From Bdellovibrionota bacterium (GTDB lineage Bacteria; Bdellovibrionota_C; UBA2361), in the NCBI GenBank assembly GCA_044352465.1, contig JBILDU010000076.1:1-14913 (forward strand): a DNA stretch of 14,913 nt, in the 5' to 3' direction. The position numbers and the translations under genes were made by a program. Under the pieces are notes generated by a model. The model saw only the letters and a list, made by a program, of their open reading frames with translations, had not been told where the DNA came from and ran no database searches. Shown here one piece after another: positions 2,163-10,787 of this stretch; position 1 is the stretch's first letter; each line of letters starts with the position of its first letter.

Positions 2163-3125
2163 ATGTACTCAGCAATTACCGGTGTAAAAGCATTGGCGGC
2201 TAGGGCACTTAGCCGGACAGCCCCCGCCACCCAGTCGACCGAAAACAATACCGCCCCGGCCCAAAGCTCCGATTTTAACTCGATGTTAAAGGGGCTTTTA
2301 AAGCCTGACTCGGCAAATAAGGTCAGCGAAGAGGAACTGTTTGCCGGTCTCACCTACGAGAGGATCAATAAGCTCAAGGGGAAGGAGGCCGCCGAAAAAT
2401 TCAAGGCGGCACTCGACGCCGAGCAAAACTCTCTGCGTAAAAGCGACGGCTATATTCCCCACGAGCAAGCAGCGATCAACGCCCTGACGAAACTGACCCA
2501 AGACGGCACCCTGACGGCAGAGGATGGGAACAAGGTCTACGCCCAGGCTTTCGCCGGGGCTCAACTCGACTCGAATAAAACGGCGCTCTTCGACAACCGG
2601 GGGGGGGCGAACGATCCCACCATGGCGGTTGAAAGCATGGAAACCGCGCTCGTCGCTGCGAAAGCGCTCGTGGCTGCTTTTGACGACGGCTCTAAAACGG
2701 CCGATCCACGCGCTCTGACCGGAGCGGCACCGACCGGCACGAAGGGTGTGGGTGGTACCAACTCATCCCCCGCAACAGCGACACCAGGAGGCGGGAGCGC
2801 TCCGGTAACACCGAGTGGCCAAACGATCGATGGCTCGGGTGGATTCTTGTGGAAGCCGGTCTCCGTGAACCAGGGGAAGCTGGCGGTCCTCCTTCCCCCG
2901 GAACTGACCGGTTCGATCCAGGCGCTCAAACTCCTCGATGCAAACGGCGCTGTGGTTGAAGAGGGCCGCTTCACCTCAGATGGAACCGGTGAGGGGGGGC
3001 GCACGAAGTATAGCTTCAATCGGCAAGGGGGAGATTACGGTGATAATTTAACGGTGCGACTTGAGCTTACCGACGGAAGCGTACGCACCTGGTCGATTCC
3101 GGACGGTTCGAAACGGTATGACTGA
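2163..3125 (+). CDS. Hypothetical two-domain protein (320 aa)
   Basis: Long ORF with an AAGGA ribosome-binding site just upstream, its own promoter and a terminator. It has a helical-looking N-domain, a G/T/P/S linker and a beta-rich C-domain starting GFLWKPVS..GKLAVLLP. No family recognised. Confidence 0.85.
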   Translation: MYSAITGVKALAARALSRTAPATQSTENNTAPAQSSDFNSMLKGLLKPDSANKVSEEELFAGLTYERINKLKGKEAAEKFKAALDAEQNSLRKSDGYIPHEQAAINALTKLTQDGTLTAEDGNKVYAQAFAGAQLDSNKTALFDNRGGANDPTMAVESMETALVAAKALVAAFDDGSKTADPRALTGAAPTGTKGVGGTNSSPATATPGGGSAPVTPSGQTIDGSGGFLWKPVSVNQGKLAVLLPPELTGSIQALKLLDANGAVVEEGRFTSDGTGEGGRTKYSFNRQGGDYGDNLTVRLELTDGSVRTWSIPDGSKRYD

Positions 3126-7177: not shown

Positions 7178-7594
7178 ATGTATACCCGCATCGTTGCACT
7201 CGGAGCCCTTCTCACCGCACTTGGAATCATCATCGGTGCGTTTGGCGCACACGCTCTCAAAGGCTCGATTACCGAATACGGGACGGAAGTGTTTAAGACC
7301 GCGAGTCTCTACCACCTCGTCCATGGAGTTGGGATCATCGCCCTGGCCGCTCTGGGATCAGCCGGTGCTGTTCCCCACCGTATCGTCCAACGGGCGGTGT
7401 TTTTTTTCGTGCTCGGTATCCTCGTTTTTTGCGGTTCCCTCTACCTCCTGGCTATTACCGAGATCCGATGGCTCGGGGCTATAACCCCGCTGGGTGGGGT
7501 CTCCTTTATCGTAGGGTGGCTTCTCCTCGGTTTCGGTACCCTTTGCAGCCACAACGCCCCAACGCGAATTGACAATCCCCCCTCCGAAGGCTAG
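7178..7594 (+). CDS. DUF423 (YgdD/TMEM256) family membrane protein
   Basis: Motifs GAFGAHAL, YHLVH, FCGSLYLLA and GAITPLGG..FIVGW; four hydrophobic segments. Confidence 0.92.
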   Translation: MYTRIVALGALLTALGIIIGAFGAHALKGSITEYGTEVFKTASLYHLVHGVGIIALAALGSAGAVPHRIVQRAVFFFVLGILVFCGSLYLLAITEIRWLGAITPLGGVSFIVGWLLLGFGTLCSHNAPTRIDNPPSEG

Positions 7595-7597
7595 TTT
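7569..7597 (+). promoter_or_regulatory. sigma70 promoter for the tRNA-Val locus
   Basis: Perfect TTGACA (7569-7574), 17-nt spacer, TAGTTT (7592-7597). It overlaps the DUF423 stop codon and ends 13 nt before the first tRNA-like copy. Confidence 0.8.
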
Positions 7598-7606
7598 TAT
7601 AGCGTT

Positions 7607-7656
7607 TTTCGGGCGCTTAGCTCAGTTGGTAGAGCGTCAGCCTTACAAGCTGAATG
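7607..7656 (+). repeat. Exact 50-nt direct repeat: 5' part of tRNA-Val (nt 1-46 plus 4 nt of leader), second copy 7787-7836
   Basis: TTTCGGGCGCTTAGCTCAGTTGGTAGAGCGTCAGCCTTACAAGCTGAATG occurs at 7607 and 7787 (period 180). The first copy lacks the canonical T arm and 3' acceptor strand. Confidence 0.97.
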
Positions 7657-7741
7657 ACGCGGTTTATCGGACGGGAGCGAAGCGGACGGACGTCGTAACC
7701 GCGTAAAAGAGGGTCGATGCGAGCGAGCGAGCATCGAATCC
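7657..7741. repeat. Two adjacent inverted-repeat hairpins (REP-like)
   Basis: ACGCGGTT (7657-7664)/AACCGCGT (7697-7704) encloses GCGAAGC. TCGATGC (7714-7720)/GCATCGA (7731-7737) has the loop GAGCGAGCGA. Confidence 0.8.
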
Positions 7742-7790
7742 AAAAGTGACATTCAGTTCCCCGAAACTGGTGTCTATTTAACAAAATTTC

Positions 7791-7863
7791 GGGCGCTTAG
7801 CTCAGTTGGTAGAGCGTCAGCCTTACAAGCTGAATGTCACTGGTTCGAGTCCAGTAGCGCCCA
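7791..7863 (+). tRNA. tRNA-Val (anticodon TAC), CCA not encoded
   Basis: Acceptor GGGCGCT/AGCGCCC plus discriminator A; D arm GCTC-AGTTGGTA-GAGC; anticodon arm TCAGC-CTTACAA-GCTGA; T arm ACTGG-TTCGAGT-CCAGT. Confidence 0.97.
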
Positions 7864-8263
7864 TTCCTTCTTCCCCCCGATTAGAACTTCCCCCGATTCG
7901 ACCTTGGCGTCGTCCCTCGGCCGAGATTCGAATGACGGCCATGAAATACCTGACAGCCCAATCGTACAAACTTTAAGTCTATAACCAACGGGTGCAGCCC
8001 AAGCGTACTCCAGGTCTCCGCGCCTCTTTTACAGGGCATCTGACCAAACTGCGGAACTGTGCTCTGAGGATATTGCCGATGTTGAAGCACTCCCAAACTG
8101 CGGCTTTGGGGTCGTTCTAAAGCATTAAGAGTTTCTCTGTAAGAATTTTGTTTTGATTACTTGGCACCAACCGAGCGTCCTAATCTCTAACAACAAACCC
8201 ATCTTTCACGCCGACTTCCCATAGCCCCTGACCTCCAGGTCTCTGAGACTTTGAGAAGGGCAT

Positions 8264-8298
8264 AAAAAAACCCGGCCAAGGTTCTATTCCTGGCCGGG
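8264..8298 (-). terminator. Intrinsic terminator downstream of lon
   Basis: CCCGGCCA (8271-8278)/TGGCCGGG (8291-8298) stem with A7 at 8264-8270 (U-tract on the - strand). A second small hairpin GGCGCTC-act-GAGCGCC lies at 8305-8321. Confidence 0.88.
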
Positions 8299-8324
8299 CG
8301 TTAAGGCGCTCACTGAGCGCCGCT

Positions 8325-10787
8325 TTAGTGAGTCACATGACCCGAGGCTGGGGCCTTCTCTTTTCCGGCTCCCTCCTCACCCTCCTCACCACCAGCTTTC
8401 GGCTCGTGGAAGAGGTTCTCATCGCGGACTGACTTCCGATCGAGGAGCTTATCGAAGTCCTTTGCTGAGGTCGAAACGAGCGCCTCATAGAGGACCTCAT
8501 CGACGTGAGCAACCGGAATAAGCTCTAGATCTTTTCGCACCGTCGCTGGGATCTCCTCGATGTCGTTCTCGTTTTCTTTCGGAAAGAGGATCCGCTTGAT
8601 ACCGCCCCGGTGCGCCGCAAGCGCCTTTTCCTTAAGTCCGCCGATCGGAAGAACGTTACCACGCAGGGTGATCTCACCCGTCATCGCGACGTTCTTATCA
8701 ACCGGAATTCCGGTAAGCGCAGAGACAAACGAGGTCGCCATCGTAATACCTGCCGAGGGACCGTCCTTCGGGATCGCCCCTTCCGGAACGTGCACGTGGA
8801 TATCCACCTTGTCGTAGAAGTACCGCGGGAGCCCCAACATCTCTGCGCGCGAGCGCACATAGCTGAGGGCTGCACGAGCCGACTCTTGCATGACGTCCCC
8901 GAGTTTACCGGTGATCTGGAGTCGCCCCTTACCCGGCAGGATCGTCGTCTCGATAACAAGGAGTTCGCCCCCCTTATCGGTCCAGGCGAGGCCGGTCGTT
9001 GTACCCACGAGATTCTCCTCCTCCGACTTCCCGTAACGGAATTTCGGTTGACCCAAGAACATCGGGATATTATCAGCGGTGATCTTCACCACATGATCTT
9101 TCCCCTTCTCCACCACTTCCACCGCGGCCTTTCGGCACAACGTCGCGATGCACCGCTCGAGATTACGCACCCCCGACTCTCGGGTATACCGGCGCGCGAC
9201 CTCAATATAGGCACTGTCGTCGATTTCGACGTTCTTCGGCTCGAGACCGTTCTCAACAACCTGCTTCTCGTAGAGATACTTCTTCGAGATGGCAAGTTTC
9301 TCGAGCTCGGTGTACCCCGAGAGTCGGATGAGCTCCATACGGTCCATCAGCGGCTGAGGGATCGTATGCAGTGAGTTGGCGGTCGTCACAAACATCACCT
9401 TCGAAAGATCGTAGTCGCAATCGAGGTAGTGATCGTTGAACGAATCGTTCTGCTCGGGATCGAGTACCTCAAGAAGCGCTGAAGAAGGATCGCCTCTGAA
9501 ATCGGTCGACATCTTATCGATCTCGTCCAAGAGGAACACCGGGTTGCTCTTCCCCGCCTTCTTAAGCGACTGGATAATCTTTCCAGGCAAAGCGCCGATA
9601 TAGGTCCGCCGGTGACCACGAATCTCCGCCTCGTCACGCACACCGCCGAGGGCGACACGAACGAATTGACGATTGGTAGCCTTCGCGACCGACTTGCCGA
9701 GGGAGGTCTTACCCACGCCGGGAGGACCAACGAGACACAGAATCGGACCCTTCATCTTGCCAACGAGCTTTTGCACCGCCAGATATTCGAGGATGCGCTC
9801 CTTGACCTTCTCAAGCCCGTAGTGATCTTCTTCGAGCACTTCACGAGCCTTCTCGATATCGATCTGATCGTCAGACACCTCATTCCATGGAAGCGCAAGC
9901 ATCCAATCAACGTAGTTCCGCACAACCGTCGCCTCAGCTGACATGGGCGACATCATCTTCAGTTTCTTGATCTCCTTATCAGTCTTTTCGCGGGCATCTT
10001 CAGGCATATCCTTCGCCTTCAGCTTGTCCTCGAGCTCCTGAATCTCATTACGGAAATCATCTTTCTCGCCGAGCTCCTTCTGGATCGCGCGCATCTGCTC
10101 GTTGAGGTAGTACTCCTTCTGGGTCTTCTCCATCTGCTTCTTGACCCGATTACGGATGCGCTTCTCGACCTGAAGAATCTCGATCTCCGACTTCATGTGG
10201 CCAAGGATCTTCTCAAGGCGATCCTCAGGGTCGATCGTCTCGAGGATGTCCTGCTTGTCTTCGAGCTTTATGCTGAGCTGCACCACGATTGCATCAGCAA
10301 GGCGCGAAGGATCTTCGATCGCGTTTACCTGCATGATCATCTCGGGGTTAACCTTCTTGCCGAGTTTTACGTAGCTCTCGAAGGTGACGTTAACCGAGCG
10401 CATGAGCGCCTTAAGCTCAGTGGTGACCGCTGTGGACGGGATCAACTCCTCCGCCTCAACGAGCATGAAATCGTCCTCGGAGACGTAGCGCTTAATGCGC
10501 GCTCGGCTCTTCCCCTCCACCAGCACTTTAATCGGGCCATCCGCGAGACGGATGAGTTGAACCACCTCACCGAGGGTGCCTATCGTGTAGATATCTTTTT
10601 GCCCAGGGTTGCTTGTACGGGCATCTTTTTGCGCCGCAAGCATGATGTACTTATTCTCTTTTTGAGACTCCTCGATCGCTCGCACGCTCTTATCGCGTCC
10701 GACAAATAGCGGGACAACCTGTTGGGGGAAAACAACGAGCTCACGGAGCGCGAGCAACGGGACCGGATTAATCAAAGTCGCTTTCAT
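8325..10787 (-). CDS. lon: ATP-dependent protease La (LonA)
   Basis: Lon N-domain (LRELVVFP), Walker [10 protein letters not shown], Walker B LLDEIDK, catalytic KDGPSAG and GGLKEK; GAGAGG ribosome-binding site. Confidence 0.98.

Follow-up and report, generated by a model that had tools for sequence, protein, structure and literature searches.

Why should a bacterial valine tRNA gene have its own 5' part copied just ahead of it? The question is raised by a stretch of 14,913 nucleotides, referred to here as the window, from an uncultured relative of the predatory Bdellovibrio, in which the gene for tRNA-Val follows a partial duplicate of itself and three hairpins. On balance, we favor the view that this is a single unit of a structured 5' leader of tRNA-Val(UAC), derived from the tRNA and specific to a lineage of uncultivated Bdellovibrionota. 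Such a unit would consist of nucleotides (nt) 1-46 of tRNA-Val, three hairpins (hp1, hp2 and hp3) and a short A/U-rich leader. Judged from sequence comparison, the arrangement probably works as an RNA leader, rather than having arisen by accident, through faulty assembly or as the scar of a mobile element.

Layout of the tRNA-Val locus

The order at the locus is tRNA-Val nt 1-46, a 134-nt spacer and the complete tRNA-Val(TAC) gene, all on the forward strand. The initial annotation of the window described an exact direct repeat that takes in four nucleotides of leader, and this proved correct: positions 7607-7656 and 7787-7836 are identical at 50 of 50 positions, with a start-to-start spacing of 180, and each copy consists of 4 nt of leader (TTTC) followed by tRNA nt 1-46. 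The tRNA part of the upstream copy (7611-7656) covers the 5' strand of the acceptor stem, the D arm, the anticodon arm and the first 3 nt of the variable loop. It gives a borderline match to the Rfam tRNA model at 7614-7679 (29.5 bits, where 29 is the cut-off), in which the T arm is unaligned. The downstream gene at 7791-7863, which does not encode CCA, was likewise found to be intact, as annotated, by both ARAGORN and Rfam (77.6 bits).

The spacer had been placed at 7657-7786 and called hairpin-rich; the description stands, and the end moves to 7790 if the four repeated leader bases are counted in the spacer. Hairpin hp1 (7657-7704) has an 8-bp outer stem, an internal loop, an inner stem and a conserved terminal loop with GAGCGAAGCG, and hp2 (7711-7741) has a stem of ~10 bp and a conserved 10-nt loop, GAGC-N-AGCGA. 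It is followed by an anti-tRNA segment of 12 nt (7745-7756) that is the perfect complement of tRNA nt 40-51 (7830-7841). This segment is overlapped by the 5' arm of hp3 (7748-7774, from fold and alignment), while the 3' arm includes ACTGGT, which is tRNA nt 49-54. The unstructured, A/U-rich proximal leader (7775-7790) completes the spacer, its last 4 nt (TTTC) being part of the repeat. The absence of any encoded enzyme, also remarked on earlier, is confirmed, as the 134 nt between the repeats contain only spurious open reading frames (ORFs). A small conserved ORF in the spacer was considered and rejected, since the frames are spurious and overlap tRNA sequence; differences in spacer length among loci are not multiples of three.

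Upstream lies a gene for a DUF423 membrane protein (7178-7594, forward strand; Pfam PF04241, E = 4e-26), the last codons and stop of which overlap the putative promoter of the tRNA. Downstream and convergent with the tRNA is lon (8325-10787, reverse strand; Pfam), which served as the synteny anchor to relatives by tblastn.

The promoter was the weakest part of the earlier reading. The putative sigma-70-type promoter at 7569-7597, on the forward strand, consists of TTGACA (7569-7574), a 17-nt gap and TAGTTT (7592-7597). A consensus scan of 7300-8400 reported no promoter-like sites, missing this one because its second hexamer matches at only three of six positions. Nevertheless, 34 of 37 sources have a single match to TTGAC[AT]-N16-18-TAnnnT upstream of tRNA-Val, the other three being missed because their contigs begin <300 nt upstream, and at every array-bearing locus it stands upstream of the entire array. 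Nor did the same scan of 7300-8400 find anything resembling a terminator in the interval from the copy to the tRNA. From these patterns we infer that leader and tRNA may be made as one precursor. Transcription from the promoter at 7569-7597 would give a single RNA of ~260-270 nt, and an RNase P cut at 7790/7791 would then part the tRNA from a leader RNA of ~185 nt.

Recurrence and repeat dynamics among relatives

Species-representative genomes were scanned with the tRNA 46-mer, and 10 kb was kept on each side of every match. This gave 36 loci (designated here by L numbers), all of them in Bdellovibrionota-type assemblies. Six of the 36 have the architecture of the window, with two exact 46-mer copies 182-186 nt apart, and variant or multi-unit forms are found in L020, L033, L035, L032, L028 and L029. 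The spacer, whose recurrence the initial annotation had proposed to check, is homologous in several deeply diverged species, where it lies beside tRNA-Val and on the tRNA strand. The spacer of the window is 87% identical to that of L020 and 49-67% identical to those of nine others; Lon of the window is ~85% identical to all relatives, and the window falls outside a clade of 26 loci. A covariance model (R1) run on the 469,598 nt of the window and loci gave 26 matches, all on the tRNA-Val strand and 25 of them within ~600 nt of tRNA-Val, and no copies away from tRNA-Val in that sequence. There is no model match at E <= 0.014 in 21 of 37 sources, including the outgroup relatives L013 and L026, so the element is dispensable.

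The partial copy varies more than the window suggests. In L020 a module is inserted after nt 26, in L033 and L035 the D loop is replaced, and L029 keeps nt 3-18 alone; the statement that the copy retains an intact D arm is thus true of the window but not of these four loci. L016, L021 and L023 have only hp2 and hp3, with no tRNA-like part, and L016, L017 and L028 have modules on the downstream side of the tRNA, beside T-arm-like or nt 22-46 fragments. Every copy, disrupted ones included, has the anticodon arm and AATG next to hp1. Since the partial copy is disrupted in some relatives, its identity need not reflect selection on the copy; concerted evolution would be enough to produce it.

Between relatives, the number of units ranges from 0 to ~3. 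In the five genomes whose upstream segment is an hp3-leader copy, paralogous units share 91-100% identity, against a mean of 77% for orthologous units between species (78 pairs). There is also an empty allele, which had been predicted to be 180 bp shorter if it existed: L018 has the same promoter as L014 and L034 and lacks exactly 182/183 nt. It comes from the assembly that also supplied L011. The variable unit number, the excess of paralogous over orthologous identity and the exact 182-nt indel together describe a tandem array evolving in concert. Unequal recombination, slippage or gene conversion between the tRNA-derived repeats could gain, lose and homogenize units, and recombination or homogenization of this kind would account for both the perfect 50-nt identity and the 182-nt empty allele. 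Recent origin, gene conversion and selection had been offered as explanations of the perfect identity; the comparison of 91-100% with 77% resolves the choice mainly toward concerted evolution.

Hairpin structure and antisense segments

The forward strand of the spacer folds into three hairpins (-44.3 kcal/mol, z = -2.5; equalled by 5 of 200 shuffles), set apart by A-rich linkers, and the reverse strand has no such fold (z = -0.22). Pairing was assessed in alignment A1, which comprises 11 sequences with 34 base pairs scored. Its paired cells amount to 92.3%, against 84.5 +/- 1.0 in shuffles (0/500 as high), and double changes occur at 12 of 34 pairs, against 7.0 +/- 1.6 in shuffles (2/500) and 1-3 in slid controls, although so small a set of related sequences (effective number 1.49) makes the shuffle controls overstate the significance. 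Among the 26 model hits, in an alignment itself fitted to the model, double changes are seen at 29 of 34 pairs, against 12.2 (0/500).

Each hairpin contributes to this signal. The outer stem of hp1 is 97.5% paired, with double changes at three of its eight pairs; hp2, the most conserved module of the family, has double changes at four of 11 pairs and an upper stem and loop that are invariant in all 11 sequences; and hp3 is 89.9% paired, with several G-U substitutions. The loops of hp1 and hp2 have the motif GAGC-N-A(A)-GCGA in common. On the tRNA strand, G-U cells outnumber A-C cells by 17:7 in A1 (p = 0.06) and by 49:12 in alignment A2, and even paralogous modules within L020 differ by compensatory changes. 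The spacer thus has homologs in several species with pairs kept by compensatory changes, as expected of a structured leader or noncoding RNA in the generic sense. Rfam 15 at the gathering score returned only tRNA matches in the window and in L014, L016, L017, L020 and L028, and at E <= 5 it returned nothing but tRNA on 7500-8350. A functional tRNA-derived leader or noncoding RNA was one of two alternatives put forward at the outset, and it fits the conserved spacer, the compensatory hairpins, the invariant loops, the location on the tRNA strand and the single promoter.

Two parts of the leader are antisense to the tRNA itself. The loop of hp1 is complementary to tRNA nt 4-13 at nine of 10 positions, which is equalled in 5 of 5000 shuffles, and the 5' arm of hp3 is antisense to nt 39-51, the anti-tRNA segment spanning the complement of the end of the repeat at nt 46/47. 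Of 15 element-bearing loci, 14 have a perfect antisense match of 9-13 nt at this position (at least 11 nt in 1 of 2000 shuffles). The segment covaries with the T-stem of the clade's own tRNA, being ACGA/TCGT in the main clade and GTGA/TCAC in the window and L020. In L023, hp3 is kept by compensatory changes and the match to the tRNA is lost (5 nt left), so the local hairpin may be the selected feature. The hp2 loop matches the tRNA in antisense at 7 of 10 positions, which is not significant (930-1353 of 5000 shuffles reach this), and a local alignment of the spacer with the reverse-complemented tRNA is of modest significance on its own (21 of 1000 shuffles). Two alternative folds are predicted to lie 0-3.5 kcal/mol apart, and RNAfold does not give the cloverleaf.

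Several more specific structures were considered and set aside. An inverted tRNA pseudogene in the spacer does not agree with the non-colinear order of the antisense pieces (nt 4-13 and nt 39-51). A full cloverleaf, made of the copy plus hp1 and closed by AGCGC pairing with nt 3-7, requires a motif that is absent in the window; AGCGC occurs in some species only, where its bases belong to the hp2 stem. A hammerhead-like junction and a T-box-like pairing of the 5' strand of hp1 with the tRNA 3' end were rejected because the window has no supporting motif for either and Rfam gave no hit, and a look-alike of an antitermination box in the proximal leader of the window is unconserved even in L020.

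How such a leader might work can be sketched tentatively. It is possible, if rather doubtful, that it acts in cis on the folding or processing of tRNA-Val. In that case the leader would bring two antisense determinants to bear on the tRNA, one in the hp1 loop (nt 4-13) and one in the 5' arm of hp3 (nt 39-51), and its tRNA-like strands, those of the partial copy and of the 3' arm of hp3, could compete for them as mimics. A more elaborate form of the idea, which we regard as somewhat less likely, makes the leader an ‘anti-tRNA’ pro-sequence, that is, a switch on tRNA-Val maturation in which the number of units would tune folding and processing. The antisense segments would hold or guide the nascent tRNA, and tuning might, for example, distinguish the attack phase of a predatory life cycle from the growth phase. 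Our literature search found no described equivalent of a leader built from half a tRNA plus hairpins, nor, in the literature searched, cis-control of a bacterial tRNA by a leader built from its own sequence.

Competing explanations and known systems

The explanations that compete with a structured leader of tRNA-Val differ mainly in whether the RNA has a role and in where the extra sequence came from. One is a trans-acting noncoding RNA, a leader released by RNase P whose loops bind a protein or whose anticodon arm serves as a sponge or decoy, for instance for a toxin that cleaves tRNA or an enzyme that binds it. We think this rather unlikely. The three independent hairpins with A-rich linkers, the common motif of the hp1 and hp2 loops and the anticodon arm with AATG beside hp1 in all copies would suit it, but a candidate partner is lacking, three loci (L016, L021 and L023) have no tRNA-like part, and a comparison of flanks across loci revealed no conserved neighbor gene specific to element-bearing loci. 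It is unlikely, to a slightly greater degree, that we are looking at a neutral scar, a local tandem partial duplication homogenized by recombination and functionless, with hairpins that are ordinary or chance palindromes. Concerted evolution within the arrays, patchy presence (21 of 37 sources have no element), disrupted partial copies in four loci and the exact empty allele are all compatible with neutrality. Against this, the spacer is kept at 49-67% identity across ~15% Lon divergence with stems paired by double changes and loops invariant, the paralogous modules of L020 differ by compensatory changes, and G-U pairs exceed A-C pairs. An assembly artefact, such as a mis-join or a duplicated k-mer path at the tRNA gene, might be suspected because the contigs of five loci (L008, L011, L028, L032 and L033) start or end inside the array, that of L011 exactly at nt 46. 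It is nevertheless very unlikely, since this architecture recurs in six other independent assemblies, each with a diverged spacer of its own and a spacing of 182-186 nt, and a conserved, covarying 134-nt insert is not what such an error would be expected to produce.

The remaining explanations invoke mobility. An integration scar would represent remnant attachment sites left by recombination in the 5'-distal part of the tRNA (reversed orientation), the body of the element and its integrase having been deleted. The locus resembles this in having a direct repeat of a tRNA segment that includes the whole anticodon stem-loop, with one copy partial and one intact (50/50), and in having filled and empty alleles with exact boundaries, but recombination between the 50-nt direct repeats would explain the empty allele just as well. 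Among 100 flanking ORFs from 34 loci there is no match to an integrase, resolvase, transposase, HUH, GIY-YIG or reverse-transcriptase family, and the 11 window proteins include no match to an integrase, resolvase, transposase or other recombinase. No locus has its copies separated by a kb-sized insert: pairs of the 46-mer are at most 186 nt apart in the 36 loci with their 10-kb flanks, and no contig among the species representatives yielded two 46-mer loci. Across species the 134-nt body shows conservation and covariation of its own, and tandem arrays with homogenization within genomes suit repeat dynamics better; we therefore hold a scar of this kind to be improbable. A MITE-like or hairpin-end element, mobilized in trans and targeting the variable loop of tRNA-Val, is a shade more improbable still. 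It draws on the hp1-hp2 module at a second site, after nt 26, in the partial copy of L020, on the modules downstream of the tRNA beside tRNA fragments in L016, L017 and L028, and on the guide-like segment complementary to the insertion junction. Yet there are no copies away from tRNA-Val in the 469,598 nt of window and loci, the spacer ends have no terminal inverted repeats, the 50-nt repeat far exceeds the length of a target-site duplication, no transposase is nearby, and the spacers matched no phage or plasmid by blastn. With matches at tRNA-Val, no recombinases in 100 ORFs and no phage or plasmid hits, the other of the original alternatives, a minimal non-autonomous element mobilized in trans, finds no support. 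Nor does the locus qualify as a tRNA group I intron, as the tRNA at 7791-7863 is continuous and has no Rfam intron match.

A structured leader of tRNA-Val would have partial parallels in other bacterial RNAs. The 3' external transcribed spacer of an Escherichia coli tRNA operon is processed out and sponges small RNAs. Here too, by analogy, a non-tRNA part would be freed by tRNA-processing enzymes, but it would be a 5' leader with a copy of its own tRNA and segments antisense to that tRNA, all predicted from sequence. The leader of rRNA operons is a transient folding helper that pairs with the 5' part of 16S rRNA. The analogy lies in a leader segment that complements the mature RNA of the same transcript and would be removed by processing, with the difference that the pairing with tRNA is a prediction only; to our knowledge, a leader acting as a folding helper of the rRNA kind is undescribed for any tRNA.

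Other comparisons concern sequence tied to tRNA genes. Partial tRNA duplications flank integrated elements, a rare type of which uses the 5'-distal portion of the gene for recombination (Zhao and Williams 2002, as cited in the portion of PMC6563490 available to us). Like these elements, the locus has a repeat that covers the anticodon stem-loop and filled and empty alleles with exact boundaries. Unlike the examples given in the available portions of PMC6563490 and PMC9897764, in which 9-23 kb lies between the tRNA copies, it has 134 nt and no integrase nearby, the insert consists of conserved covarying hairpins, and the units stand in tandem and are homogenized within a genome. Bacterial tRNA genes have been called ‘surprisingly uniform’, with introns at position 37/38 as their sole significant structural diversity, that being the typical position of bacterial tRNA group I introns (from an extract of PMC4033280). 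The leader resembles such introns as a structured RNA tied to a tRNA gene, with a 12-nt segment that complements the tRNA on either side of the junction (nt 39-46 and 47-50) and is reminiscent of an internal guide sequence, but here the downstream tRNA is unbroken, the junction falls in the variable loop and not at the 37/38 given in that extract, and the module of ~90-130 nt has no recognized catalytic core and no Rfam intron match. Finally, tRNA-Other of Bacillus cereus is, according to the excerpted text of PMC3399842, a pseudo-tRNA with a non-translational role. As there, a tRNA-derived sequence unable to serve translation may be functional; tRNA-Other is described in the excerpt as near-complete and stand-alone, whereas here a 5' fragment with hairpins is placed inside the leader of a real tRNA.

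Half-tRNA copies of this kind are easily mistaken for pseudo-tRNAs or integration scars, and the arrays break metagenome assemblies, with 5 of the 36 loci beginning or ending within one. If the leader is transcribed and active, it would constitute a new family of tRNA-linked RNA, and leader-assisted or leader-controlled folding of a tRNA would become directly testable.

The repeat and its neighbourhood in the window

Reading of positions 7300-8200, together with a repeat finder, identified an exact direct repeat of 50 nt with a spacing of 180 nt (7607-7656 and 7787-7836), downstream of which the match continues at five of the following nine bases. The second copy leads into an intact tRNA-Val(TAC) gene at 7791-7863, called by ARAGORN and Rfam (77.6 bits), and the first consists of four leader bases and tRNA nt 1-46, ending three bases into the variable loop. 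With all 50 positions identical, the exact partial tRNA-Val copy described in the initial annotation is borne out. The upstream copy is a borderline Rfam tRNA match (29.5 bits, cut-off 29), with the D and anticodon arms aligned and the T arm not. The spacer (130-134 nt) is predicted to form three hairpins on the forward strand (z = -2.5), hp1 (7657-7704), hp2 (7711-7741) and hp3 (7748-7774), in agreement with the hairpin-rich structure proposed earlier; the reverse strand has no such fold (z = -0.22). We refer to the copy, the three hairpins and a short A/U-rich leader as a unit.

The tRNA-Val flanks are ordinary housekeeping genes, with a histidine kinase, a response regulator, a 320-aa ORF, alanine racemase, motA, motB and DUF423 on the forward strand, and lon, clpX, clpP and tig on the reverse strand. 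The 320-aa ORF (2163-3125, forward strand), upstream of alr and motA, has no Pfam match; among the tRNA-Val loci of relatives (L001-L036), homologues with 40-45% identity adjoin motA in L009, L010, L014, L015, L023, L027 and L036. Directly after lon (8270-8299, reverse strand) there is a strong hairpin with a T run that resembles a terminator, and its weak, sub-threshold likeness to Rfam anti-hemB (21.6 bits, cut-off 49.5) is most likely due merely to both being terminators. We compared synteny between 7178-10787 and L005, L014, L015, L023, L036 and others. Most relatives have tig-clpP-clpX-lon followed by a tRNA-Val of like orientation, beyond which DUF423-motB-motA runs the other way. The window and L020 have the tRNA and its array after DUF423 and convergent with lon, so that the tRNA-Val segment is inverted relative to both flanks.

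At the 3' end of the gene (7861-7866), CCA is not encoded and TTC follows, as in L020 and L012; CCA is encoded in all but one of the remaining loci with a whole tRNA-Val gene. Directly 3' of the tRNA (7870-7898), a C-rich motif of 12-13 nt occurs twice as short direct repeats. A related motif, tcccgctcg[ag]cgct, has at least one copy in L001, L006, L007, L013, L019, L020, L022, L024, L025, L030 and L031, and L030 carries at least three tandem copies of ~100 nt with a motif of this type 3' of tRNA-Val.

Distribution, promoter and turnover of the array

Scanning species-representative genomes, a set separate from the window's own genome, with tRNA nt 1-46 as a 46-mer query yielded 36 loci, taken with 10-kb flanks, whose assembly titles read Bdellovibrionota, Bdellovibrionales, 'delta proteobacterium' or unclassified Pseudomonadota. 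The nt 1-46 segment is invariant in all 36, and all carry an intact tRNA-Val(TAC) except L011, where the contig ends inside the gene. None of the 36 is identical to the window; the closest relative is L020 (spacer 87% identical, MotB 80%). The window's architecture, two exact 46-mers 182-186 nt apart, occurs in six loci of other assemblies (L005, L014, L015, L017, L030 and L034), and on this ground an assembly artefact is very unlikely.

A covariance model built on 11 full spacers was applied to the window and the loci. At least one match at E ≤ 0.014 was found in 16 of these 37 sources, leaving 21 without the element. All 26 matches lie on the tRNA strand and 25 within ~600 nt of tRNA-Val; the other (L013, 15.7 bits, E = 0.13, ~1.4 kb away) is probably noise. 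The forms of the array vary. L020 has four model matches, and its partial copy is split after nt 26 by an additional hp1-hp2 module. Two units are found in each of L033 and L035, where the partial copy has a replacement of 21-23 nt in its D loop; the L029 copy is reduced to nt 3-18; and L016, L021 and L023 have just hp2 and/or hp3 between promoter and tRNA. The L032 contig begins within a unit and the L008 array is cut off at the contig start. The intact D arm noted earlier for the copy thus holds for the window, where Rfam aligns it, but not for L020, L033, L035 and L029, where the copy is interrupted, replaced or shortened. L020 also has, between hp2 and hp3 of its promoter-proximal unit, ~175 nt of additional GC-rich sequence that forms hairpins (-480 to -305 before the tRNA) and is not present in the window.

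Module remnants also occur 3' of the tRNA, in L016 (+100 to +480 after the tRNA start, two tandem ~196-nt copies), L017 (+115 to +205) and L028 (+100 to +247). In the first two, T-arm-like sequence replaces hp3 after an hp2-like hairpin; in L028, hp1-hp2 at the contig end is preceded by a piece of the tRNA (nt 22-46) that has a single substitution in the anticodon loop. These remnants hint at an older tRNA-Val paralogue with a module in its variable region.

In 34 of the 37 sources, the 700 nt upstream of tRNA-Val contain a single occurrence of the pattern TTGAC[AT]-N16-18-TAnnnT, the other three sources being truncated contigs; in every array-bearing locus the pattern precedes the entire array (-222 relative to the tRNA in the window, ~-225 in L014, -630 in L020). 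The putative single promoter of the initial annotation is supported by conservation, although a generic scan did not call it, because its second hexamer matches at three of six positions in the window; that scan also found no terminator-like site between copy and tRNA. Leader and tRNA would thus be co-transcribed from this promoter, and the leader would presumably be released by RNase P. The promoter directly precedes the partial copy in the window, L005, L014, L030 and L034, and the junction falls in mid-hp2 in L016 and after an hp1 remnant in L020 and L035. This variability fits repeated deletions at the promoter-proximal end.

An empty-site allele, which the initial annotation had proposed looking for, was found in L018. 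It shares the promoter of L014 and L034, followed by a short leader and the intact tRNA, and aligns to them with a clean gap of 182/183 nt, the equivalent of one unit. L011, sister to L014 in the Lon tree, is a second contig of the same assembly; it stops exactly at tRNA nt 46, and its final 121 nt overlap L018, which starts 75 nt upstream of the intact tRNA. These ends suggest an assembly-graph branch at the repeat end; they could mean that the sampled population contains both filled and empty alleles, or just that the assembly broke at the repeat. Paralogous hp3-plus-leader segments are 100% identical within L015, L033 and L035 and 91% within L017 and L020, far more alike than orthologous ones (78 pairs, mean 77%, maximum 89%); concerted evolution of the units follows from this, with unequal exchange, slippage or conversion as the mechanism. 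The choice first offered for the perfect copy (recent origin, gene conversion or selection) is thereby settled mainly in favour of concerted evolution, which suffices for identity to an invariant tRNA segment.

Structural constraint and antisense relations

In a Lon tree of 29 rows, 26 loci form one strongly supported clade, with the window, L013 and L026 outside; Lon of the window is ~85% identical to all others. The two groups also have different T stems (nt 47-53), TCACTGG being the sequence of the window, L020 and L013, and TCGTAGG that of most other loci. Element-bearing loci, found both in the window/L020 lineage and in five or more large-clade subclades, are mixed with element-free ones, and the window spacer aligns unambiguously with nine large-clade spacers at 49-67% identity.

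Covarying stems and invariant loops are clear by eye in the alignment of the 11 full spacers (A1), where RNAalifold predicts 34 pairs across hp1, hp2 and hp3. In A1, 92.3% of cells are paired (84.5 ± 1.0 in shuffles, 0/500 as high) and 12 of the 34 pairs show both-side changes (7.0 ± 1.6, 2/500 as high). With partners slid by 1-3 columns, 24-39% of cells are paired and 1-3 pairs change on both sides. Across the 26 model matches, an alignment fitted to the covariance model with weak matches included, both-side changes occur at 29 of 34 pairs (12.2 in shuffles, 0/500). The controls overstate significance, because the set is small and its members are related (effective number 1.49). There are more G-U than A-C cells, at 17:7 in A1 (p = 0.06) and 49:12 in a second alignment (A2), a bias more consistent with RNA transcribed from the tRNA strand than with DNA hairpins or the opposite strand. 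A common terminal-loop motif, GAGC-N-A(A)-GCGA, is carried by hp1 and hp2 and is invariant or nearly so.

Positions 7745-7756 are perfectly complementary to tRNA nt 40-51 (7830-7841), across the repeat end at 46/47. A perfect antisense match of 9-13 nt to nt 38-51, 45-49 nt upstream of the tRNA, is found in 14 of 15 element-bearing loci; shuffles of one leader gave a match of at least 11 nt in 1 of 2000. In the 20 loci where no hp3 leader could be scored (19 devoid of model matches, and L028, with its module 3' of the tRNA), the best matches are just 4-8 nt at scattered positions. The antisense bases facing nt 47-50 track the tRNA by clade (ACGA/TCGT versus GTGA/TCAC), a difference of two pairs changed on both sides. 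The same segment doubles as the hp3 5' arm, and the 3' arm is tRNA-like, with GCTGAATG then GTAG in the large clade and ACTGGT (tRNA nt 49-54) in the window. In L023, the exception, both hp3 arms have changed together and the tRNA match is down to 5 nt; since hp3 is kept there without the match, the local hairpin rather than tRNA pairing may be the target of selection. Complementarity to the tRNA is also seen in the invariant hp1 loop, which matches nt 4-13 at nine of ten positions (10 and 5 of 5000 shuffles as good); the hp2 loop has no significant ungapped antisense match to the tRNA. The bases inserted into the D-loop variants of the copy (L033 and L035) form pairs with its free 5' acceptor strand. 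Predicted energies of leader paired with tRNA and of local hp3 plus folded tRNA lie 0-3.5 kcal/mol apart, which would permit a switch between the two folds, no more.

Identity and possible function of the leader

Passages of PMC9897764 describe partial tRNA copies as normally marking integrated elements that are 9-23 kb long and encode an integrase, with the gene's 3' part as the usual site, and part of PMC6563490 describes recombination at the 5'-distal part as rarer. The tRNA-Val array differs in missing the defining integrase and cargo. No mobile-DNA enzyme was found among the window's flanking genes. A Pfam scan of 100 ORFs at -2.3 to +3 kb of tRNA-Val in 34 loci gave housekeeping families only (among them Dam-type methylase, TatD, enoyl-CoA hydratase, AI-2E transporter, DUF423 and MotA/B), with no integrase, resolvase, transposase, HUH or reverse-transcriptase family. 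The spacers had no blastn match in phage and plasmid collections, and no Rfam family was found for them. With no recombinase nearby and the matches in the window and loci, one probable noise match apart, confined to tRNA-Val, the mobile element first considered and an integration scar are both improbable on present evidence. Bacterial tRNA introns, in the portion of PMC4033280 concerned with them, are group I or II and lie at 37/38, whereas the window's tRNA-Val is uninterrupted. No published tRNA leader with a copy of the tRNA's own 5' part was found in the literature searched, which lay mostly outside subscription journals. Functional RNAs derived from the spacers of tRNA operons, and leaders that assist rRNA folding, are the nearest functional analogies.

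The array is real and conserved, is under structural constraint of the RNA type and has the dynamics of a repeat array; in the window and loci, it is restricted to the tRNA-Val leader. An essential role is argued against by the 21 element-free sources and by the disruption of the partial copy in several relatives. That the array is a functionless scar seems improbable, and a role of the leader in trans is doubtful. The feature in the window is best read as a single unit from a family of structured leaders that derive from the tRNA and are specific to tRNA-Val(UAC) within these bacteria. As a tentative hypothesis, such a leader might act in cis on the folding or processing of tRNA-Val through its antisense segments, with the tRNA-like strands as competitors.
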